Notes under the pieces: model-generated
Told to the model about the DNA's origin: nothing
Seen by the model: the letters and a program-made list of their open reading frames with translations, nothing else
Databases searched by the model: none
Translations under genes and position numbers: made by a program
In this document: one piece after another, positions 6,217 through 43,950 of the stretch
Position numbering within the stretch: position 1 is the stretch's first letter
Layout of the letters: the number at the start of each line of letters is the position of its first letter
From: Bdellovibrionota bacterium FG-1
Lineage (GTDB): Bacteria > Bdellovibrionota > UBA1018
NCBI GenBank assembly: GCA_051382295.1
Contig: JBBCAW010000078.1
Span: forward strand, 1 to 64,000
Direction of reading: 5' to 3'
Length of the DNA stretch: 64,000 nucleotides

Positions 6217-9200
6217 CTAAACTGCCGCCGAAGCTTCCTCATGCCCCGAAGCCTCAATGCCTGCTTCTTCAGCCGTCTTTACGCGGGCCTGCAAGTACTT
6301 GTACTTGGTCAAACCCGTACCCGCCGGAATCAGACGCCCCATGATCACATTCTCTTTCAAGCCGCGGAGATAATCCACACGGCCTGCAATCGAAGCTTCT
6401 GTGAGCACCTTGGTGGTCTCTTGGAACGAGGCCGCCGAGATAAAGCTGTCCGTACTCAGCGATGCTTTGGTGATCCCAAGAAGCAACGGTTCAGCAGTGG
6501 CGGGTGCGCCGCCAGCTTGCAGAGCTCGTTGATTTTCAGCTTCAAAAGCCATCTTATCTGATGTTTCACCAGGCAAGAAGGTCGTGTCGCCCACGTCCTT
6601 GATCTTCACCTTACGAAGCATCGAACGAACCACCGTCTCGATGTGCTTATCGTTAATCTTCACCCCTTGGAGGCGATAGACTTCCTGCACTTCGTCAACG
6701 AGGTACTTAGCGAGGGCTTTTTCACCCAAGACCCGCAAAATATCATGTGGATTAATAGGACCATCCATCAGCGGCTCACCGGCTTTGACGTAGTCGCCTT
6801 CGTTCACCGCCAGATGGCGTCCCTTACCAATGAGATATTCTTTGGCTTCGCCGGTTTCAGGCGTGACAACAACCTTACGCTTGCCCTTGGTATCTTTACC
6901 AAAGGAGACGACGCCATCGATTTCGCTGATAACAGCAGAATCCTTGGGCTTACGCGCCTCAAACAACTCGGCCACACGTGGCAGACCGCCCGTAATATCC
7001 TTAGTCTTGGTGGTTTCACGGTGAATTTTGGCAATCGTATCACCGGCAGAAAGATGGTCACCATCCGTCACAACGAGATTGGCGCCAACTGGCACCATAT
7101 AACGCGCCACGCGGTTGGTATTCTCAATCTTTCTGATCTCGCCATTTTCATCCAAAATCAGGATCTTCGGACGTTTATCAGTCGACTTGGTTTCAGTAAT
7201 GACTTTATGAGAAAGTCCCGTCACGTTATCGAACTGCTCCTGCATCGTGACACCTTCTTCGATGTCTTCAAATTTCACGGTCCCAGAAATTTCAGTCACA
7301 ATCGGAGTCGAGTAAGGATCCCACTCGGTCATCAACCTGCCCTTATCGACAGACTCTCCGTCTTTGACAAGAACCTTGGCCCCATAAACCACGGGATATT
7401 TCTCGCGTTCACGACCTTGAGCATCATGAATCGAGATTTCACCGTTACGATTCATAACGGTAAGGTATCCCTCCTTGTTCGTGACCGTCACGATGTTCAC
7501 AAACTTGACCGTACCCTTGGTCTTGGACTCGAGGGTTGACTGCTCAGCGCGACGTGAAGCCGTACCACCGATGTGGAAAGTACGCATCGTCAGCTGAGTT
7601 CCGGGCTCACCGATCGACTGCGCAGCAATGACGCCGACTGCCTCGCCGATGCTCACCATCCGTCCGCGAGACAAATCACGACCATAACAAAGACCGCAAA
7701 TGCCCTTCTTGGACTGACAAGTCAGCACAGAGCGAATTCGAACGCGGTCGATACCGGCCTCTTCGATCTTTTTCATGAGGTCTTCGGTGATTTCCGAGTT
7801 TGCGGCAACAAAAATCTCGCCGGTCACAGGATCAATCACTTCATCCAAGGTCACACGACCCAAGATACGATCGCCCATGCGCTCGATCACTTCGCCACCT
7901 TCAATCAAGGCGCTGACATACAAGCCATCAAGGGTACAACAATCCACTTCGGTGACAATGACGTCCTGAGAAACATCGACCAAACGACGAGTCAAATAAC
8001 CCGAGTTAGCGGTCTTGAGAGCGGTGTCGGCCAAGCCCTTACGAGCGCCGTGCGTAGACACGAAGTATTGCAACACCGAAAGGCCTTCGCGAAAGTTGGC
8101 GACAATCGGAGTTTCAATGATTTCGCCCGATGGTTTAGCCATCAAACCGCGCATACCGGCCAACTGACGAATCTGGGCATTACTACCTCGGGCGCCAGAA
8201 TCAGCCATCATAAAGACCGAATTAAAGGCCGGACCCGTCATTTCAGTTGACGGCTGAGCATGCTTATCGGCGCTCTTCCAGCCCACTGGGGCCTTGAAGG
8301 TCTGAACCGAAAGACGTTTCATCATCGCGCTAGCGATTTGTTCCGAGGTCTGGGCCCAAATGTCGATCACCTTATTGTAACGCTCACCATCGGTAATGAG
8401 ACCTTCGATGTATTGATGCTCGATTTCATGCACTTGCTGGTAGGCTTTTTCGAGAAATTCTTTCTTTTCCACAGGCATTTGCATGTCGTGAATGGAGATC
8501 GAAATTCCGGCCTTCATAGCTTCGCGGAAACCGGTCTGCATCAAATGATCGGCCAGCAATACAGTCTTCTTATTTCCGGTGAGACGGAAACAAAGATCGA
8601 TCAACTCAGCTAAGTCCTTCTTGCCCAAAACCTTGTTGTACGAGCTAAAAGGGATTTCCTCGGGCACAATTTCAGACAAAAGGGCGCGGCCTACCGTGGT
8701 ATCGTGAATCGTCCCGGCAATACGGCACTTAACCTTGGTCTGGAGACCAACAACTCCCGCATCGTAAGCGTAATGAGCTTCGATCGGACTTGAAAACACC
8801 TTGCCTTCGCCCTTGGTGTAAAACCGTTCACGAGTCATGTAGTAAAGACCCAAAACAATGTCCTGCGAAGGAACAATGATCGGTTTACCATGGGCAGGTG
8901 AAAGAATATTATTGGTCGACATCATGAGCACACGAGCTTCGACCTGAGCTTCGATCGAGAGTGGCACGTGTACAGCCATTTGGTCACCATCGAAGTCGGC
9001 GTTGAAGGCCGCGCAAACGAGAGGATGAAGCTGGATGGCCTTTCCTTCGATCAATACGGGTTCAAAGGCCTGAATGCCGAGGCGATGAAGGGTCGGAGCA
9101 CGGTTCAAAAGAACAGGGTGTTCCTTAACGACTTCTTCCAAAATATCCCAAACTTCTTGGCGCTGTTTTTCGACCATTTTCTTCGCAGATTTAATGGTCG

Positions 9201-10374
9201 TGACATATCCGTACTCAGAGAGCTTATTATAGATAAAGGGCTTAAAGAGTTCGAGAGCCATCACCTTAGGCAAGCCGCATTGATGCAACTTGAGCTCAGG
9301 ACCAACCACGATTACTGAACGGCCGGAGTAATCGACACGCTTGCCGAGCAAGTTTTGACGGAAACGCCCTTGCTTACCCTTAAGCATGTCTGACAAAGAA
9401 CGGAGCGGGCGCTTATTTGGACCCGTAAAGGTCTTGCCGCGTCGACCGTTATCAAAAAGCGCATCCACAGATTCCTGGAGCATGCGCTTCTCATTACGGA
9501 TAATAATTTCAGGAGCATTCAGTTCCATCAGGCGCTTTAATCGATTGTTACGATTGATGACGCGACGATAGAGATCATTCAGATCCGATGTGGCAAAACG
9601 ACCACCATCCAAAGGAACCAAAGGACGAAGCTCGGGTGGAATAACAGGAATCACATCCAGCATCATCCACTCTGGCTTATTTGTTCCAGAAACCTTAAAG
9701 CTTTCAACAACTTTCAGACGTTTAGAAAGTTTGGTTCGCTGCGCCTCAGAGGTCGTTTGCTTGAGTTCACGACGAAGCTGACGAGATAAAATTTCAATTT
9801 CGACTTTCTTCAGCCGATCACGAATGGCTTCGCCACCCATCGAAGCGGTAAAACTAAAGCCTTCCTTAATCAACTGACCATACTTCTCTTCGGAAAGAAC
9901 CGAATTTTCTTCAACGCCGCTATTGCCCGGATCCAGAACCAAATAGGCTTCGCAATAAAGAACTTTTTCGAGATCCTTGAGAGTGATGTCCAGCAAAGCA
10001 CCAATACGCGAAGGAAGCGACCGCAAGAACCAGATATGGGCGACTGGGGTAGCTAATTCGATATGCCCCAAACGCTCACGCCGCACCTTAGATTGAATCA
10101 CCTCGACGCCGCACTTTTCGCAAACGACGCCACGGTGCTTCATGCGTTTATACTTACCGCAATTACATTCGTAGTCCTTCACCGGACCAAAGATCTTGGC
10201 GCAGAACAAACCATCACGTTCTGGCTTAAAAGTACGGTAATTGATGGTCTCAGGCTTTTTTACTTCACCATACGACCACTCACGAATTTTCTCAGGCGAA
10301 GCCAGAGAAATCCGGATGCCGGTAAAACTCAACGGATCTTTAGGTTTGTCAAAAAAGTTAAGAAGATCTTTCAT
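6217..10374 (-). CDS. rpoC: RNA polymerase beta' subunit
   Basis: [12 protein letters not shown] catalytic motif and N-terminal Zn ribbon. Confidence 0.99.
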
Positions 10375-10481
10375 TCTGCCCTCGATCTTGTCCGCCTAGC
10401 TCTCCCATCCTTGGGGTTCGCTTCAGGCTATCGCCAGCACTGGCCGGCGGCTTGGTCCATCCAGAACCTGGTTCCGTATTC

Positions 10482-13400
10482 TTAGAGCAATCCGCTCTTC
10501 ATATTCTTATCTTCGGCCTCAATTAACTCCACATTCAATGCGAGTGACTGAAGTTCCTTAACAAGAACATTGAAGGATTCAGGCAAGCCAGGCTCGAGCA
10601 GATGCTCGCCCTTGACAATTGCCTCATACATTCGATTGCGACCCGTTACGTCGTCTGACTTAACGGTGAGGAATTCCTGAAGTCCGAAGGCAGCCCCATA
10701 GGCCTCAAGCGCCCAAACTTCCATTTCCCCAAGTCGCTGACCGCCAAACTGCGCTTTACCACCCAACGGCTGCTGAGTAACGAGCGAGTATGGACCGATC
10801 GAACGTGCGTGGATCTTTTCTTCGACAAGGTGATGCAACTTAAGCATGTACATAATGCCCACAGTCACTTCCTCAGCGAATGGCTCACCCGACACACCAT
10901 CATACAACGTGGTCTGACCACGAAGAGGAAGGTCGGCGTGTTTGAGCATGCTCTCAATATCCTTCTCACTCGCCCCGTCGAAAACCGGAGTAGCAAGATG
11001 AACACCGCGCTTCAGATGACCCGCCATCTTCTTCAATTCGTCGTCAGATGCCTTTTCGAGGAACTTGTCCACATCGGGATGACTGTACGTATCCTTGAGC
11101 GTCTTACGGAGCTTGTCTCCGTCAAAATCCTCAAGATAATGGGTGACCTTCTCGCCAATGCCGTGCGCTGCCCAGCCCAGAGTGACTTCAAGCAACTGCC
11201 CGATATTCATACGGGATGGAACGCCCAGCGGGTTCAGAACCATATCCACTGGAGTACCATTGGCCATAAACGGCATATCTTCCATAGGAAGAATTCGTGA
11301 GATAACACCCTTGTTACCGTGACGTCCTGCCATCTTATCGCCCACCTGAAGCTTACGCTTGATGGCGATCTGTACCTTGACCATCTTGATCACGCCCGGA
11401 GCGAGCTCATCACCCCTCTTGAGCTTGTCGGTCTTGTCCTTGAAGACGTACCGAACGGCATCGATCTTCTCTTTCGCCGTCTTCATGATCGTAGTCACTT
11501 CTTGTTCCAGATCTTCTTTGACCGGAATGAATCCGAGAAGATCAAACGGGATAGCGACCAAGGTTTCCTTATCGAGTTTTTGCCCCTTCTTGAGCAGCTC
11601 TTCCGAGCCGTCTTCTGAAAGCAATTTACCCGTGGTGGATGCACCATCCAAGGACTTGGAGATCTTATTGAAAGCCGATTGCCGAATGGCATCCGTCTCG
11701 ATTTTTTCGTCACGACGAATCTTAGAGATCTGCTCCTCCAAAATTTGCTTCGTACGTTCATCCGGCTCAGTGCCCTCGCGAGCGAAGACCTGAGCATTAA
11801 TCACGATCCCCTGCACCCCCGAAGGAACACGAAGGGACGTATCACGGACATCGCCGGCCTTTTCACCAAAGATAGCGCGCAACAACTTCTCTTCGGGAGA
11901 GAGCTGAGTCTCACCTTTAGGAGTCACCTTACCGACGAGAATATCACCCGGCTTGACTTCGGCACCAATGCGGATAATCCCACTTTGATCGAGGTCTTTG
12001 AGGGCTTCTTCGCCGACATTCGGAATGTCGCGTGTGATTTCTTCTTTGCCAAGCTTAGTATCGCGGGCAACACACTCAAATTCTTCGATGTGAATCGAAG
12101 TGAAGGTGTCTTCCTTGATCAGACGCTCAGAAATCAGAATCGAATCTTCGAAGTTGTAGCCGTTCCAAGGCATGAAGGCAATTAAGATGTTCTGACCCAA
12201 GGCCAGCTCGCCCGCATCAGTTCCTGGACCATCGGCCAAGACATCACCCGCTTTGACCTTGTCGCCGGCATTAACAACCGGACGCTGAGTCACGCAGGTG
12301 TTCTGGTTCGAACGCTGGTACTTAGTTAGATTGTAAATATCAACATCAGACGCCACTTCATCTGCTTTGTGGACATCACGACGAACAACAATCTTGGTAC
12401 CATCGACCATGATCACTTCGCCGTCTTCCTTGGACAGCAACACCTGACCGGAGTCACGAGCAACCACACGTTCGATCCCAGTGCCGATCAACGGCGCATG
12501 GGTACGAATCAGCGGCACCGCTTGGCGTTGCATGTTGGAACCCATCAAGGCACGATTGGCATCATCGTGTTCCAGAAACGGAATCAGCGATGCGGCAATC
12601 GAAACCAATTGATTAGGCGAAACATCCATGAGTTCAACTTCGTCAGGCTGAACGAGAGAAAAATCCCCCTTACGCCGAGCCGAAATTAACTCACCCTGCA
12701 GTTTATTACTCCGCAACGCATCGGGTGCGACTTGGGCGATAATCTTGTTCTCTTCCTCAGTTGCAGTAAAGAACTTGATTTCGTCGGAGACCATCTTCCC
12801 TTGAATCACGCGGTAAGGCGTTTCGATAAAACCGTACTCATTCACGCGAGCGTAAGTTGAAAGACTGGCGATCAAACCAATGTTCGGACCTTCAGGCGTT
12901 TCGATCGGACAAATACGACCATAGTGCGTATTATGAACGTCGCGAACCTCAAAGCCGGCACGCTCACGAGTCAAACCACCTGGTCCGAGGGCCGAAAGTC
13001 GCCGTTTATGCGTGACTTCGGACAACGGATTGGTCTGATCCATGAACTGAGACAACTGACTCGACCCGAAAAATTCCTTAACCACCGCTGAAACTGGCTT
13101 CTGATTAATCAAATCGTGGGGCATCAGGGTTTCGATTTCCTGAATGCTCATCCGTTCCTTGATTGCCCGCTCCATGCGCACCAAACCAATGCGATATTGA
13201 TTTTCGATCAACTCACCCACAGCGCGAACACGACGATTACCGAGATGATCGATATCATCGATCGTGCCACGACCATTGTTGAGTTCACAGAGATAGAACA
13301 GCGTGGATAAAATATCCGCCTTAGTAAGAGTGGTCGTATCCGAAGGAACATTGTTTTCCGGAAACTTATAATTCAACTTTAACCGACCGACGCGAGATAA

Positions 13401-14615
13401 ATCGTAGCGATCCGTATTAAAGAACAAATTATCAAAAAGCTGCTTGGCAGCTTCAATCGTCGGAGGATCACCTGGACGCATGCGCTTATAGATTTCAATC
13501 AGCGCCTCTTCAGGGCTGGAAACCTTATCCAACGTCAAGGTATCGCGAATAAAGGCGCCATAGGTTAAATTGTCAGTGAAGATGACCTTCACTTCTTTGA
13601 CACCCTTAGCCTTCAACTCCTCAATCTTAACTTCGCTCAACTCCTGATTACACTCGAGAAGAACTTCACCTGTCTTCTCATCGACAATATCTTCAGAAGC
13701 CACTCGCCCAAATACAGCCTCGGTCGGCACTTCAAGACGCTTAATGCCAGCATCCTGAATGCGCTTAATCACTGCCTTGGTGAATTTGCGATTCTTTTTG
13801 ACGATCGCTTCACCCGTTTTTGGATCTGAGATGTCATCTTCGGCGCGCTGACCTGACAAAATATCAAGATCTACCGCTTTATAGAACTTACCGTCCTTAT
13901 CGAAAATGACCTTCTCCATGCGATAGAAGAAGTTCAAAACCTCAAAATTGGACATCCCCATGGCGCGCAAAATAATCGTCGCCGGAAGCTTTCGCTTCCG
14001 ATCGATACGAGCATAAAGAACGTCTTTATGATCGAACTCGAAATCGAGCCAAGAACCGCGATGCGGAATGACACGGGCCGAATACAAGATCTTACCGCTC
14101 GAATGACTCTTTCCAGAATCATGATCGAAAATAACACCGGGTGAGCGGTGCAATTGACTGACGATCACGCGCTCGGTTCCATTAATGATAAAAGAACCGG
14201 CTTCGGTCATGAGCGGAATTTCGCCCATGTAAACTTCCTGCTCTTTGATATCACGAATATTACGAGTACCAGCCTCCTCATCTACATCATAGACAACAAG
14301 GCGAACAGTAATCTTCAGAGGAGCCGCAAACGTCATTCCACGTTGACGGCATTCGCCAACATCATACTTTGGTTTTTCGAGAGAGTAGCTCTCAAATTCC
14401 AAAGATGCTGTGCGATTGAAGTCTTCAATCGGAAAAACCGATTTAAAGACAGCTTGAAGACCCATACTCTCGCGCTTTTGCGGCGAAACATCCGCCTGGA
14501 GAAATTTCTCGTAAGACTTGCGCTGAAGCTCAATCAGATTCGGAATCTCGACCGGGGAGGTGATTTTTGAGAAATCCTTCCGGATTCGGCGATTTTCCGA
14601 AAAAAGGGAGGCCAT
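10482..14615 (-). CDS. rpoB: RNA polymerase beta subunit
   Basis: [33 protein letters not shown] and GGQRLGEME motifs. Confidence 0.99.
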
Positions 14616-39678: not shown

Positions 39679-40596
39679 TCAGACGAGCGAATAGACTTCA
39701 ATTTTATCGGGCCCCGCAGCCTTAGCCGAACGAAGGGCCTCGGACGCCGAGTGGGTCAAATCACTCATTTTAGCCTCTTGCTGATCTGCCGTAATGCCAG
39801 CTACGCCAATACAAGTCGTCAAGGGAGTGCTCGTCTTATCATTCTTATACGGTTGAGCCTGAAGAGCATCGCGAACCCTTTCAGCGACAAATTCGGCCCC
39901 TGCTAAGTCAGTCTCCATTAAGAGGATAAAAAACTCATCCGCCCCGATGCGCGCCACCAAATCGATACTTCGAATACAGGCTTTGAGGCGTTTGGCCACC
40001 TCCTGCAGAACATTGGAACCGAACTGAAACCCGAAATCCTGATTGATCTTTGAAAAATCGTCCAAATTAAGAATCAGAGATGAAATCGGCTTCCTAAAAC
40101 GACGCGACCTCAAGATTTCTTCTTCCCCTCGTCGATAGAGTGTCCGAAAGCTCAAAAGCCCCGTGAGCTCGTCGGTGGAGGTCAACTCATCGATGCGATC
40201 ATTGGCCCGACGAAGCTGGTCTTGCAGCTCCTTGAAGCGCAATAGGGCGCGCACCCGCAAAATCAGATCGTGATCTTGAAAAGGACGTCCCAGATGATCA
40301 TCGGTACCGGTCTGGACACCTTCCACAACCCTTTTGAGTTGGGCACTATCGACGATGAGCAAAATCGAAGAATAATGGCCCTCAGATACCGAGCGGATCT
40401 TAGAAATCCATTCGACCGCCCCCCCCGTAAAAATCCGGTCATCCAATAAAATCAAGTGAGGCTTCCAGGCCCGCAGACGGTGAAGCGCACTCTCCGAATC
40501 AGTTGCACTTTGCACGCTGATGCTCTCATTCGAAAGGATTTTTGTGGTGTGTTCAATGATCTCGCGGTCAGGCCCAACCACCAAAACTCGTTTCAT
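39679..40596 (-). CDS. REC + GGDEF-domain protein (PleD/WspR-like) with a GADEF active-site variant
   Basis: TDELTGL, LDDFSKINQDFG, RSID I-site, RIGADEF. Confidence 0.88.
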   Translation of the reverse strand: MKRVLVVGPDREIIEHTTKILSNESISVQSATDSESALHRLRAWKPHLILLDDRIFTGGAVEWISKIRSVSEGHYSSILLIVDSAQLKRVVEGVQTGTDDHLGRPFQDHDLILRVRALLRFKELQDQLRRANDRIDELTSTDELTGLLSFRTLYRRGEEEILRSRRFRKPISSLILNLDDFSKINQDFGFQFGSNVLQEVAKRLKACIRSIDLVARIGADEFFILLMETDLAGAEFVAERVRDALQAQPYKNDKTSTPLTTCIGVAGITADQQEAKMSDLTHSASEALRSAKAAGPDKIEVYSLV

Positions 40597-41759
40597 TTGT
40601 CCTCGCTTCCTGCAGATCCGGGCAACCAGACCGTCAATTGAGTGCCTTTTCCCACCTCAGTCGCAATGCTCACCTGTCCACCATGAGCTTCGACTATTTC
40701 TCGTGAAATAGAAAGTCCCAGTCCGCTTCCTCGATCTCCTTTAGTCGTAAAAGCAAAGTCAAAAACCCGCGCCAAGCTCTCGGGTGCAATTCCAACGCCG
40801 GTGTCCGCGATAATCACCTCAACTCCGGAGACAGTCCTTAAAGCAGGCCTCACGGTAATCGTTAAAACGCCTCCTTTGACCATGGCCTGGATGGCATTGA
40901 GCAATAAATTCAAAAACACCTGAGAAAGACTGGCGGCATCAAACCGAAGAGGGGAGACGGAGACGTATTTTTTTTCGATTGTGACCGAATACTTCAAAAA
41001 CTCGTGACGAAGGAGAAGTAAGGCCTCATCCAACGTCTGGACCACCGAGCCGAGTTGAAAAACGGGAGTATTTCTTGAAAAAGACTGAAGATTCCGTACC
41101 AACATCCCCGCTTTTTCAGCCGCAGCCATGGCAACACCCAAGTGATCGTGGATCTTGGCAACGTCCCTTTCAAGCAGCGCAAGGTCGGTTTTGCCGATAA
41201 TTCTTAATAAAAGATTGCCAAATTCATGTCCGATGCCGCGCGAAACCTGCCCGACGGCGGCTAATCGCTCAGATCGGACTAACCGATCCGTTTTTTGATC
41301 GCTTTGGCATTTTTGATTCCAAATGGCGGCGATTTGTCGGACCTTCTGCGCCAAAAAGTCTCCTCGAGAAGGAATCGGCAAAAAATCCCATTGAACCCTA
41401 AGCGCCGAACCCAAAATTTTGTCTATTCCATCGACCGACCATGTCGAATCCGAAGTGAGAAGGACAAAAAAGATATCAGGATACGCGGAGTGCATCACTT
41501 GAACAAATTTGAGACTCTGTTTTTGATTTTCAGGTCGAATGACATAAAAAACGCCAATTACAGGCCTCTTCTGTTCGAATTCATTGCGAATCAAAACCCG
41601 GGCATTGCCTTCTGAATGACTCAAAAGAAGGTTAAGACCTAACTCATGAGTCGCCGCTGACAGGGTTTCGACATCCTTCCGCAGAAAAGTCCGGTCATCT
41701 TCGACGATGAGGACAATCAGAAAGCCCGTTTTGTTTTGAATTGGATCTATTTTAAGCAT
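40593..41759 (-). CDS. Sensor histidine kinase with a degenerate N-terminal receiver-like domain
   Basis: SERLAAVGQ...GHEFGNLL, NLLLNA, DTGVGI, GSGLGL. Confidence 0.88.
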   Translation of the reverse strand: MLKIDPIQNKTGFLIVLIVEDDRTFLRKDVETLSAATHELGLNLLLSHSEGNARVLIRNEFEQKRPVIGVFYVIRPENQKQSLKFVQVMHSAYPDIFFVLLTSDSTWSVDGIDKILGSALRVQWDFLPIPSRGDFLAQKVRQIAAIWNQKCQSDQKTDRLVRSERLAAVGQVSRGIGHEFGNLLLRIIGKTDLALLERDVAKIHDHLGVAMAAAEKAGMLVRNLQSFSRNTPVFQLGSVVQTLDEALLLLRHEFLKYSVTIEKKYVSVSPLRFDAASLSQVFLNLLLNAIQAMVKGGVLTITVRPALRTVSGVEVIIADTGVGIAPESLARVFDFAFTTKGDRGSGLGLSISREIVEAHGGQVSIATEVGKGTQLTVWLPGSAGSEDK

Positions 41760-41910
41760 GTGATTGGTTCAAGTAGATCAAAGTGAGAAGAGAACAACAA
41801 AAAAAAATTGAAAAATTGTTTTCTGTTCTTGATCTGTCACGCTTTCAAGGTAACATCAGATCTATAAGCGTCGGATTTGGTTCGACGTGATTAACGGAGG
41901 AAATAATAAA

Positions 41911-41988
41911 ATGGCAACCAAGAAAAAGGCCACCAAGAAGAAAGCTACTAAAAAGAAAGCAACCAAGAAAAAGACCGCGAAGAAGTAA
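41911..41988 (+). CDS. 25-aa lysine-rich histone-H1-like microprotein (not in the ORF track)
   Basis: MATKKKATKKKATKKKATKKKTAKK; GGAGG RBS; synonymous variation between repeats; followed by its own terminator. Confidence 0.85.
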   Translation: MATKKKATKKKATKKKATKKKTAKK

Positions 41989-42010
41989 TCGGTCCTTGGT
42001 AGTAGTTTCC

Positions 42011-42044
42011 AAAAGCCCTGAGCTTCGGCTCGGGGCTTTTTTTT
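42011..42044. terminator. Bidirectional intrinsic terminator
   Basis: AAAAGCCCTGAGC-TTCG-GCTCGGGGCTTTTTTTT, between convergent genes. Confidence 0.9.
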
Positions 42045-42055
42045 GTTTTTACCGG

Positions 42056-42883
42056 CTATTTTAGGTCTTTTTCGACAGTTTTCTCTAAATGATCAAGCAC
42101 CCATTTGAAGACCTCTAGGTAGCTTGGCCCCCCTCGTAAGGGAATCGGACCGGTCTCCGAATAGTGATCTCCGGGCAAGGCGCCTAAGAATTTTCCCCAC
42201 TCCGCCGACTGAAGACTCACCATTCCATCGTTTTCAGGAAAACCAGCTTTTGCGATGATCTCATGGGCAACCCATAGCCAAGGAACCAGTGAATGGGTAA
42301 AAATTGACCCCGGAATGTAAAATCCGGCGCTAAAATACCTCACTCGAGGATCATTCTGGACCTCCGGGTTAAAAATCCGGTCCATATAATCCGTCGTTAG
42401 CTCATGGGCAGCACGCAAATCGCCTTCAAACCATTTTGAAAGGACCGCATTTCCGCCAGCGAGGTGCTTCACCACAAAATCCGCCAATGGACTCCCGTGA
42501 TGAGGCGTGGCCAAAGTGGTGATTGAGGCAATTCGATCGCCCAAGCCGTACCGATGCACGACCAAACGGCAATCTAGACCGCCCATACTATGTCCGATCA
42601 GATGCATGGACCCCTGGGGGACCAATCGATGGATTTCATCGCGCAAAATTGCAGCACGTTCTTCAATCGTGCCGTTAGAAGGGGTCTCGGCGATCAAAAA
42701 TTCATGGCCACGATCCCGAAAAAGCTGTTTCAAAGCAAAAAGCGCCTCATAGGGAAGGCTCGAAACCCCTAACCCATGGGCAAAAACGACGGGGAGGGGT
42801 CCTCTCTGTGGAGTCGAGGCCAACGCAGTGGCCGAATTCACGGCTAACCCAACAAATACCAAAAAAAGACCGCATGTTCTCAT
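42056..42883 (-). CDS. Secreted triacylglycerol lipase (alpha/beta hydrolase)
   Basis: FAHGL, GHSMGG, TPHHGS, NDGMV and DH motifs. Confidence 0.9.
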   Translation of the reverse strand: MRTCGLFLVFVGLAVNSATALASTPQRGPLPVVFAHGLGVSSLPYEALFALKQLFRDRGHEFLIAETPSNGTIEERAAILRDEIHRLVPQGSMHLIGHSMGGLDCRLVVHRYGLGDRIASITTLATPHHGSPLADFVVKHLAGGNAVLSKWFEGDLRAAHELTTDYMDRIFNPEVQNDPRVRYFSAGFYIPGSIFTHSLVPWLWVAHEIIAKAGFPENDGMVSLQSAEWGKFLGALPGDHYSETGPIPLRGGPSYLEVFKWVLDHLEKTVEKDLK

Positions 42884-43950
42884 CTCTTCTCCTCAAGTCG
42901 AGCTGCAACAATAGCCTGGGCCACTCTCACCGGAAAGGAGGGACCGCCAAAAATCCAACCTGAATAAATTTGCACGAGATCAGCGCCGGATTGCAAACGA
43001 AGCACCGCTTCCTCGGGGGTCATCACTCCCCCCACGGAAACGATCGGAAGGCGCGTGAACTGCCTGGCCTCGATCAAACATTTTCGTGATAAATCAGTGA
43101 GCGGTGCGCCACTCCAACCTCCGGTCATATTCTGATATTCACCGGCCAGCGTATTGGTGAGAACCCAACCATTCACACCCCATCCTTCAGCGGTCTGAAT
43201 CAAATCCTTGAGTTCTGAGCCTTGTAGCTCGGGGGCAAGCTTCAAAAGAAGCGGAGGCCGATGATTCCAGCTCGAAATCTGATCATTGACCTGACCCACG
43301 ATGGGTTGAAGTGCTTGCACTGTTTGGAGAGACCTCAGACCAGGGGTATTAGGAGAACTCACATTGATCACGACATAGTCGGCGATATTCCGAAAAGGCT
43401 CAATCGCGCGCACATAATCCAAAGCAGCAGCATCATTAGGGGTGTCTTTATTCTTTCCAATGTTGACCCCCACTCGAAACCCCTGGGGAAGTTTTGATTT
43501 CGCACTCGCTACCTGCTCGGCGACGAAGGATGCGCCTAATCCATTGAATCCCATCCGATTAAAGATAGCTTTCCGCTCGGGATCACGAAAAAGGCGAGGG
43601 CGATCATTTCCGGGCTGAGGCCGGGGCGTGACCGTTCCAATTTCAGCAAAACCGAAACCGAGTTCCGGCAACCCAGTCAAAATTTCGGCATCTTTGTCAA
43701 ATCCTGCTGCCAAACCCAGACGGGATTTGAAAGTCATACCCCAGACTTGATCCATGCTTGAATCCTGCTTTTGGGGCGACTTTTCGGCAATAGTCACCCG
43801 GCCCCCCCGAATCCCCCGACTCATCAACCTGAGCGGAAAACCTCCCAAACGGATAGAAGCCCGGATAAATGAGAGGGTGAGGCGATGAATACCTTCCGCA
43901 TCAAAGCAAAAAAGAATGCGCTTGAGAACGGACCAGATCCAAACCTGCAT
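42880..43950 (-). CDS. pyrD: Quinone-dependent dihydroorotate dehydrogenase
   Basis: GLAAGFDK, NRMGFN, NVSSPNTPGLR and KLAP motifs. Confidence 0.96.
   Translation of the reverse strand: MQVWIWSVLKRILFCFDAEGIHRLTLSFIRASIRLGGFPLRLMSRGIRGGRVTIAEKSPQKQDSSMDQVWGMTFKSRLGLAAGFDKDAEILTGLPELGFGFAEIGTVTPRPQPGNDRPRLFRDPERKAIFNRMGFNGLGASFVAEQVASAKSKLPQGFRVGVNIGKNKDTPNDAAALDYVRAIEPFRNIADYVVINVSSPNTPGLRSLQTVQALQPIVGQVNDQISSWNHRPPLLLKLAPELQGSELKDLIQTAEGWGVNGWVLTNTLAGEYQNMTGGWSGAPLTDLSRKCLIEARQFTRLPIVSVGGVMTPEEAVLRLQSGADLVQIYSGWIFGGPSFPVRVAQAIVAARLEEKR

Follow-up and report, generated by a model that had tools for sequence, protein, structure and literature searches.

The closest described counterparts in composition to the gene reported here are the chlamydial protein Hc2 (HctB; PF07382, NF038052) and the H1-like proteins of Burkholderia and Bordetella (NF038053), which share with it Lys-rich repeats with Ala, Val, Thr or Pro and no acidic residues. 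Protamines, which are Arg-rich, are also very short, about 60% basic and encoded by stand-alone genes. Hc1 and Hc2 are described as condensing DNA, with Hc2 binding RNA better than Hc1 does, and Hc2 consists of consecutive basic pentamers whose gain or loss shifts its length (PMC2848022). The KPAA tails of AlgP and PhaF and the C-terminal domain of eukaryotic histone H1 are disordered Lys/Ala polycations that bind DNA or polyphosphate: KPAA peptides are reported to bind DNA, and AlgP to localise to polyphosphate granules (PMC9239181), while condensation of DNA by H1 tails is stronger at higher charge density and with Arg (PMC11331069). The passages on nucleoid proteins in PMC11318664 and PMC10627809 name HU, IHF, Fis, Dps, SMC and histones and no H1-like peptide; the former, a 2023 review, calls the tight packing of the Bdellovibrio bacteriovorus chromosome open and allows for “yet unidentified proteins”. 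The literature searched, which took in few subscription journals and no supplements, held no description of such peptides, and small-ORF catalogues may list them.

Here we describe a 25-aa Lys/Ala/Thr-repeat peptide encoded by Bdellovibrionota bacterium FG-1, found in a window of 64,000 nucleotides (positions 1 to 64,000 of contig JBBCAW010000078.1, assembly GCA_051382295.1), and a wider class of similar genes. By analogy, the peptide would work like an H1 tail while standing outside the HC2, AlgP/PhaF, bS22 and protamine families. What is new is a locus and promoter fixed throughout the taxonomic class, a recurrent charge of +14, a range of 20-130 aa at a single locus elsewhere in the phylum, independence from the Bd0055-type histone, and a link to expression data from B. 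bacteriovorus HD100.

Table 1. Features of the peptide gene and its surroundings, in window coordinates
Feature	Position	Strand	Basis or remark
A-tracts 5' of the -35 box, UP-element-like (putative function)	41799..41815	+	sequence; A/T tracts here in most of 20 orthologous units, judged by eye
-35-like hexamer TTGATC	41829..41834	+	box kept in orthologous units
-10-like hexamer TAACAT	41851..41856	+	TAACAT in 18/20 orthologous units
5' leader hairpin	41868..41888	+	fold kept, sequence and length variable; putative mRNA-stabilising role
Shine-Dalgarno GGAGG	41896..41900	+	GGAG(G/A) in 26/26 orthologous units
ORF, 25 aa, MATKKKATKKKATKKKATKKKTAKK, 14 Lys, no acidic residue, net +14	41911..41988	+	ATG 41911 to TAA 41988
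Intrinsic terminator, GC-rich stem, UUCG loop, 8 U	42011..42044	+	hairpin 42015-42036
Sensor histidine kinase, divergent upstream	40593..41759	-	similar sequence in 2/19 orthologous loci; neighbour not conserved with the gene
Alpha/beta hydrolase, convergent	42056..42883	-	no match in 19 orthologous loci
pyrD, quinone-dependent dihydroorotate dehydrogenase, convergent landmark	42880..43950	-	conserved at locus

An earlier note on this DNA had described the promoter box, the GGAGG with its A-rich spacer, the 14-Lys ORF and the UUCG terminator, all of which were recovered in place; the 5' hairpin and the upstream A-tracts had been missing from it. In the window unit the two promoter hexamers are 16 nt apart, and an A-rich spacer of 10 nt separates GGAGG from the start codon. 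The units of the (ATKKK)4 repeat differ at synonymous sites only, units 1 and 4 being the same DNA, and the last unit reads TAKK. Of the 213 short ORFs in the whole genome that start with ATG and contain 25% Lys or more, this one has the highest Lys content; 238 GGAGG-led ORFs of 15-40 aa were found, three of them with a strong terminator, the window ORF alone being basic. We regard it as almost certainly a real gene. The peptide matches nothing in Pfam, NCBIfam, PHROGs or the PDB (chains at E up to 10), and neither a signal peptide nor an amphipathic face or moment is predicted from its sequence. Elsewhere in the genome a (TK)n frame (C35:15916-16071, minus strand), which stems from a 6-bp tandem repeat and lacks a Shine-Dalgarno sequence, is probably a DNA repeat and offers a contrast to the gene.

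A generic promoter scan did not call the TTGATC-16-TAACAT box, which we take to be a promoter because it is conserved across orthologous units: TTG(A/C)NN-16 nt-TAA(C/T)NN is present in 19/20, and L020 has a variant with a 15-nt spacer. Under a matrix built from the other 19 units the window site scores 34.3 and the runner-up site in the genome 16.9; with every other genomic site far below the window's score, no promoter-defined regulon emerged. The 206-nt unit as a whole folds with a z-score of -4.5 against 200 shuffles, and no Rfam family reaches its gathering score on it (best 26.4 of 75 bits, driven by the terminator). Leader hairpins have negative z-scores in 20/20 units against 200 mononucleotide shuffles, with at most 10% of the shuffles equally stable in 15/20; the leader of L017 has no clear hairpin. 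A scripted search found terminators of -12 kcal/mol or stronger in 24/26 orthologous units, and the two it missed, L003 (at a contig end) and L013, do show the hairpin in their locus sequences. The terminator in the window probably also serves the convergent genes.

The unit adjoins pyrD in at least 36/40 genomes of the family. At 15 of the 19 orthologous loci pyrD is convergent and downstream of the peptide gene, and at a 16th the gene beyond pyrD, which we take to be RsmB-like, occupies that side; two loci run into the contig end and L018 shows neither landmark gene. Deposited records labelled Oligoflexia (L070) and Deltaproteobacteria (L021) have the unit beside pyrD as well, and this, with the Bd0055-type histone of the source genome, fits a placement in Bdellovibrionota. 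No DNA-handling gene is a conserved neighbour in the orthologous loci or in the cross-phylum flanks scanned. Further off in the window, positions 6217-14615 (minus strand) hold rpoC (6217-10374) next to what is probably rpoB, with a 1377-aa product.

A DNA search with the unit matched 29/41 related genomes, and 2 further genomes missed by it also carry the gene. The best 19 non-self loci (from 17 genera of the family and 2 other families) all carry the complete unit, with peptides of 21-33 aa (19-33 aa over the orthologous set), and the reading frame is intact in 20/20 orthologous ORFs. Syntenic homologues, the lack of which the earlier note would have held against its proposal, thus exist on the pyrD side. 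In codons 2-11 of 14 orthologues starting MATKKKAxKKK, the non-majority letters number 1/0/48 at codon positions 1/2/3, and pairwise codon differences are 427 synonymous against 13 non-synonymous, although these loci were chosen by DNA likeness and are kin, so that the counts are not independent. AAA-AAA makes up 23/191 Lys-Lys dicodons in the orthologues versus 1518/3687 in the long frames of the genome, a rarity that would match avoidance of slippery poly-A in a translated message. The sequence comparisons support selection acting on the gene at the peptide level and so bear out the earlier note's view of a self-contained, selected gene.

The phylum-wide pattern check named in the earlier note also came out in its favour: a strict pattern matches 96 of 301 phylum genomes (115 matches), against 1 match for the reversed control. 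Judged by length, 73 of these matches (in 64 phylum genomes) are in frame, one of them, in G084, with an inner stop. In-frame matches occur in 50/76 class genomes and 31/40 family genomes; of the 9 family genomes missed by the pattern, 5 carry the gene in an out-of-pattern form and the other 4 gave no pyrD match. Eighteen out-of-frame and 2 in-frame phylum matches were inspected, the out-of-frame ones being longer proteins with the same start.

The number of charges varies less than the residues between them. Fourteen basic residues are found in 36/46 orthologues and, within the family (n=43), in 33 (range 12-15, SD 0.53), while spacer residues range from 5 to 11 (SD 1.16); charge rises by 0.24 per residue of length against a neutral expectation of 0.63, in a set partly bounded to 16-25 aa by the search pattern. 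In the sister family f10, 9/9 matches at the same unit are +14, and a tenth copy that lacks the box has +11; where paralogues have no promoter box, their charges run from 9 to 14. Across 23 independent pairs on a pyrD tree, spacers differ more in 10, charge differs more in 3 and 10 are tied (p 0.09), and one independent pair differs by 11 charges. Taken together, these sequences are suggestive of a charge constraint near +14 in the lineage.

On a wider scale, a scan of GTDB contigs returned at least 120 loci; among the matches listed, 96 contain complete ORFs, 98 in all, that encode 16-31 aa and have a Lys content of 40% or more. These 98 short members (again among the matches listed) contain 59% Lys, 28% Ala, 6% Thr, 1.6% Pro and 0.4% Arg, with an acidic residue in two, and their middle part, which is free of the search pattern, has an equal make-up. 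By the depositors' titles, the matches listed span at least about 19 bacterial phylum-level labels plus Nitrososphaeria and DPANN archaea, although nearly all are metagenome-assembled genomes whose labels may be wrong (L093 was left out as doubtful). In further genomes the strict pattern was found in 0/120 of an alphaproteobacterial class, in 6/100 Acidobacteriota (5/99 without the unpublished G461), and with K/A-type peptides in 4/100 Thermoproteota, where 5 other matches are different sequences. The class is patchy across lineages and sits at unrelated loci. Likeness across phyla is one of low-complexity sequence, from which homology is not demonstrable, and convergence is possible. Of 179 flanking stretches 150 were scanned, and no neighbour common to the phyla appeared among them; 29 gave a Pfam match, many of the others being probably wrong frames. 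A single tRNA was found across 60 loci. On viral contigs, 28 of the 120 matches listed are short and contain 40% Lys or more, most of them lacking a Shine-Dalgarno sequence or differing in composition.

Exact look-up in a collection of 15 billion sequences found 19 of 20 peptides and long repeats absent, the SWIB fusion alone being present, and a homologue search with the 43-aa form gave nothing at E 0.01 among 7902 candidates; the blanks are probably due to short length and low complexity. The ESM Atlas does contain the 43-aa sequence, its nearest clusters being labelled 'hypothetical protein' (leads only), and databases carry 40-50-aa forms as unnamed hypothetical proteins.

Length is far freer elsewhere in the phylum. 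In f22, a sister family, the gene lies before one that we take to be miaB-like and encodes 20, 98, 118 or 130 aa of pure repeat; its neighbours are clp and the miaB-like gene in L262 and L279 and the latter alone in L266 and L270, and a fifth f22 locus, with a clp neighbour and a similar upstream box, encodes the tail plus SWIB. Lys tails with the same start and repeats occur as fusions with HU in L071 (PF00216, E 5e-17) and with SWIB in 4 loci. Long Lys/Ala N-terminal tails also occur on metabolic enzymes, namely fumarase (L265) and PPi-dependent phosphofructokinase (L096), and in Bdellovibrionota Lys tails are fused to acidic domains as well. Two groups of proteins from that phylum (L261, L264, L272, L278 and L263, L267, L271, L277) join a Lys tail to a domain with a Cys/His motif or to a strongly acidic half; five of them were scanned and matched no Pfam family at E 0.01.

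Up to four short copies occur per phylum genome, and the source genome holds two more besides that in the window (C63:5883-5951 and C140:1441-1518, both minus strand). The C63 copy adjoins a transposase-like ORF, presumably IS91-like, and the recurrence of its upstream sequence in L053 suggests that it is mobile. The C140 copy faces an apparent broken remnant, which we take to be HU/IHF; a PhaR-like gene lies nearby, as does a region repeated on C119. There are two short copies each in L040, L113, G439, G625, G588 and G564, in tandem in the first two. The source genome also encodes, at C5:3372-3806 (minus strand), an H1-like protein with Lys/Ala repeats, a Gly/Ala linker, a His/Asp/Glu acidic end and its own Shine-Dalgarno sequence and terminator, which the PF07382 search of the genome missed and which has similar counterparts in L275 and L276.

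Set against the described systems, the peptide has three Lys per pentamer where Hc2 has two basic residues, and 25 aa without conserved flanking domains where Hc2 has 165-237 aa. Membership in Hc2/HC2 was rejected, the peptide giving no match (cut-offs 40 bits in Pfam, 135 bits in NCBIfam) and the orthologous set, at 19-33 aa, lying far from the 150-240 aa and conserved flanks expected of the family; its longer relatives give weak HC2 scores (E 2.7e-5 to 1e-3, best 24.8 bits). It resembles the AlgP/PhaF and H1 tails in make-up but corresponds to the tail alone, with a charge density of 0.56, almost no Pro and no globular domain; for want of a folded N-terminal domain, and with Pro at 1.6% in the 98 short members among the matches listed, it was not placed in the AlgP/PhaF type. 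The highly basic bS22/mS38/eL41 (PF08213) and bL37 proteins, given as 24-33 aa, are alike in size and charge, whereas the peptide class has nearly no Arg or hydrophobic residues, varies in length and occurs in several copies per genome; neither PF08213 nor any solved chain was matched. The site of the bS22/mS38/eL41 family lies between h44 and h45 of 16S rRNA. The resemblance to H1 tails and Hc2 drawn in the earlier note stands. Its term 'protamine-like' fits in size and fails in composition, members among the matches listed having 59% Lys and 0.4% Arg, and the class was not assigned to the protamines.

A likely counterpart, highly transcribed, exists in B. bacteriovorus HD100, a predator that is non-pathogenic and open to genetic work. 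All five complete genomes tested of family f21 carry a 27-43-aa K/A/T ORF near mlaD, with a TTGACG box, a Shine-Dalgarno sequence and a terminator; these ORFs have 16-20 Lys, mostly paired. The leaders of this Bdellovibrio-type gene in L313-L317 contain a (CAA)n tract, a possible translation enhancer or RNA-protein site. Table S1 of PMC3627812 lists HD100 Bd3800 (NP_970506.1, hypothetical protein) as 132 nt with a GC content of 0.30303; a 780-nt gene precedes it at a distance of 105 bp, Bd3802 and the 777-nt Bd3803 lie downstream, and mlaD stands three rows on; the 43-aa K/A/T/V ORF of L314 equals it in length, GC, gap and neighbour sizes. Bd3800 is thus the likely HD100 counterpart, matched by position, length and GC and not by sequence, and it differs from the window gene in locus, family and promoter.

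In the strandless Table S1 of PMC3627812, Bd3800 has an RPKM of 6803 in growth and 270 in attack phase. Growth and attack values there are 5041 and 11 for the histone Bd0055, 4283 and 48 for IHF-alpha, 768 and 14 for HU, 16593 and 22 for L7/L12, 22383 and 41 for EF-Tu, and 1108 and 14209 for Dps, with 4113 in growth for L9. Attack-phase RPKM is probably deflated by the dominant merRNA, to judge from Table 2 of the same paper. In microarray rows Bd3800 changes 1.5-fold and 1.0-fold upon entry into prey and 0.8-fold during host-independent growth, where Bd0055 goes up 4-5-fold (PMC2797640). From the RPKM and microarray rows, the Bd3800 locus is transcribed in both phases; its expression is not specific to a late stage, unlike that of Hc2. 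This RNA level supports high expression of the class, and not of the window gene. Rows Bd3799-Bd3802 are all absent from the supplement files of Hocher 2023 that were searched, and no paper naming Bd3800 was found in the literature searched.

These data loosen the tie, implied in the earlier note, between the peptide and the compact nucleoid of attack-phase predators. The HD100 counterpart is expressed in both phases, and the window promoter is sigma70-like: the Bdellovibrio FliA promoter is given as TTAAG-N16-CCGATA (PMC3627812), and assignment to FliA (sigma28) as an attack-phase gene was rejected, with no CCGAT in the 150 nt upstream and TTGATC-16-TAACAT as the conserved box. The family with the Bdellovibrio-type locus is related to the source genome at phylum level only, and similar genes are found in many lineages that are not known to be predatory.

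By analogy and from its sequence, we consider it somewhat probable (about 0.55) that the peptide is an abundant, free H1-tail-like polycation that binds nucleoid DNA by charge. This reading is drawn from the composition, the free change of length, the HU and SWIB fusions and the known behaviour of Hc1/Hc2, KPAA tails and H1 tails. A sigma70-type promoter with A-tracts, the 5' hairpin, the strong Shine-Dalgarno sequence and the terminator would give an abundant, stable mRNA in all phases, and Lys triplets spaced by Ala/Thr would form a disordered, non-amphipathic chain. Oligolysine affinity for DNA scales with charge; lysine number may likewise set the peptide's affinity for nucleic acids, which would explain a lineage optimum near +14, and Lys instead of Arg would keep the condensed state weak and reversible. 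Made in quantity, the peptide would neutralise and bridge DNA, mainly the chromosome, as a free C-terminal tail of histone H1 might, working beside HU/IHF (four matches in the source genome) and the Bd0055-type histone without depending on the latter. Composition would count for more than sequence or length, since the clp-miaB locus of f22 spans 20, 98, 118 and 130 aa, and the joining of such tails to HU and SWIB speaks for nucleic-acid binding. A peptide of charge +14 binds polyanions of every kind, however, and DNA is for that reason not singled out as the target, as the RNA binding of Hc2 and the polyphosphate granules of AlgP illustrate. A fixed binding pocket would be another way to explain a charge that stays near +14, and the fusions to metabolic enzymes and acidic domains count against a DNA-specific reading. 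The candidate targets (DNA, ribosome or RNA, polyphosphate) need not exclude each other.

That the peptide is instead a small basic ribosome- or RNA-bound protein like bS22, eL41 or bL37, patching rRNA or coating RNA, seems unlikely to us. Its size and charge are those of bS22 (30-33 aa) and bL37 (24 aa), as given in PMC10081302 and PMC12123416, the source genome has no PF08213 match, so that such a pocket could be free, charge is near constant within the lineage, and Bd3800 RNA stands at the level of ribosomal proteins in growth; yet its attack-phase RPKM of 270 compares with 22 for L7/L12 and 41 for EF-Tu (PMC3627812). The peptide gene follows rpmA (L27) co-directionally, before a gene for an HHH_8 protein, in two Bacteroidota loci (L034, L111), but L27 is the sole ribosomal-protein family among the 29 Pfam-positive of 150 flanks scanned. 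Neither the absence of a match to PF08213, NCBIfam or any PDB chain (E up to 10), nor the 0.4% Arg among the short members listed, nor lengths of 20-130 aa at one locus and up to four short copies per genome, would be expected of a ribosomal component. We also hold it unlikely, and slightly more so, that the peptide serves polyphosphate granules, or a non-DNA polyanion of another kind, as a counter-ion or spacer, in the manner of the AlgP/PhaF tails, or as a stand-in for polyamines. The AlgP Lys/Ala repeat tail is needed for granule spacing (PMC9239181), the source genome has ppk1, and one Lys tail is fused to the PPi-dependent phosphofructokinase; AlgP, though, has a folded N-terminal domain that the peptide lacks, and ppk, CHAD and phasin families are absent among the scanned flanks. 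As to polyamines, no spermidine synthase match was found in the source genome and 5/24 family genomes match, all in frames of at least 500 aa, although a PF16653 gene in the source genome could provide another polyamine route.

The source genome encodes a 74-aa Bd0055-type singlet histone (C52:10900-11124, L287:1381-1605; E 2e-14 to PDB 8cmp/8fvx), which scores under the Pfam histone cut-off, and a Bd0055-type query matches 272/301 phylum genomes, above the 67% given in PMC10627809. A stand-alone linker-histone tail working specifically with this histone is nonetheless very improbable: just 4/50 peptide carriers from other lineages match the query, a single one that can miss distant histones, and no linkage of the two genes was seen, leaving an obligate histone partner unsupported. 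Improbable as well, if less markedly, is that the gene acts through its RNA, or that the peptide is a regulatory by-product (a Lys-sensing leader, lysine store, acetyl sink or antimicrobial peptide). The transcript is structured and A-rich, and a basic peptide could be acetylated or toxic to other cells; against this, variation is almost solely at third positions with frames intact in 20/20, and no Rfam family reaches its gathering score. An attenuator leader peptide was rejected, there being no co-oriented biosynthetic operon 3' of the terminator: the genes there are convergent in the window and at 16/19 loci, which leaves nothing to attenuate. The peptide also lacks a signal peptide and an amphipathic moment.

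The polycation that we favour would escape notice. Digestion with LysC/trypsin, even with two missed cleavages, yields pieces of at most 5-7 residues, which accounts for its absence from nucleoid proteomes; the nucleoid proteomics behind the discovery of the bacterial histone used these enzymes (PMC10627809), which would leave fragments of this class too small to be detected. Routine gene calling, like trypsin proteomics, would pass the class over. If the reading is true, nucleoid-protein inventories of many uncultured phyla and of ammonia-oxidising archaea miss an abundant component, and if the target is the ribosome or polyphosphate, an abundant protein class has still been overlooked. More tentatively, and with our doubts outweighing our belief, a major chromatin component of many bacteria and some archaea may be a gene-encoded minimal polycation of 16-43 residues with lineage-tuned charge, one that gene callers, HMM libraries and trypsin proteomics all overlook; in B. 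bacteriovorus it would be Bd3800, the missing factor of the dense nucleoid.

A separate sort of Lys-rich peptide turned up in the same scans. L176:1501-1557 (minus strand), and likewise L223, L253 and L254, encodes an 18-aa Lys/Gly peptide with a Shine-Dalgarno sequence, overprinted in another frame inside a gene that lies between those for a phage portal and a major head protein.
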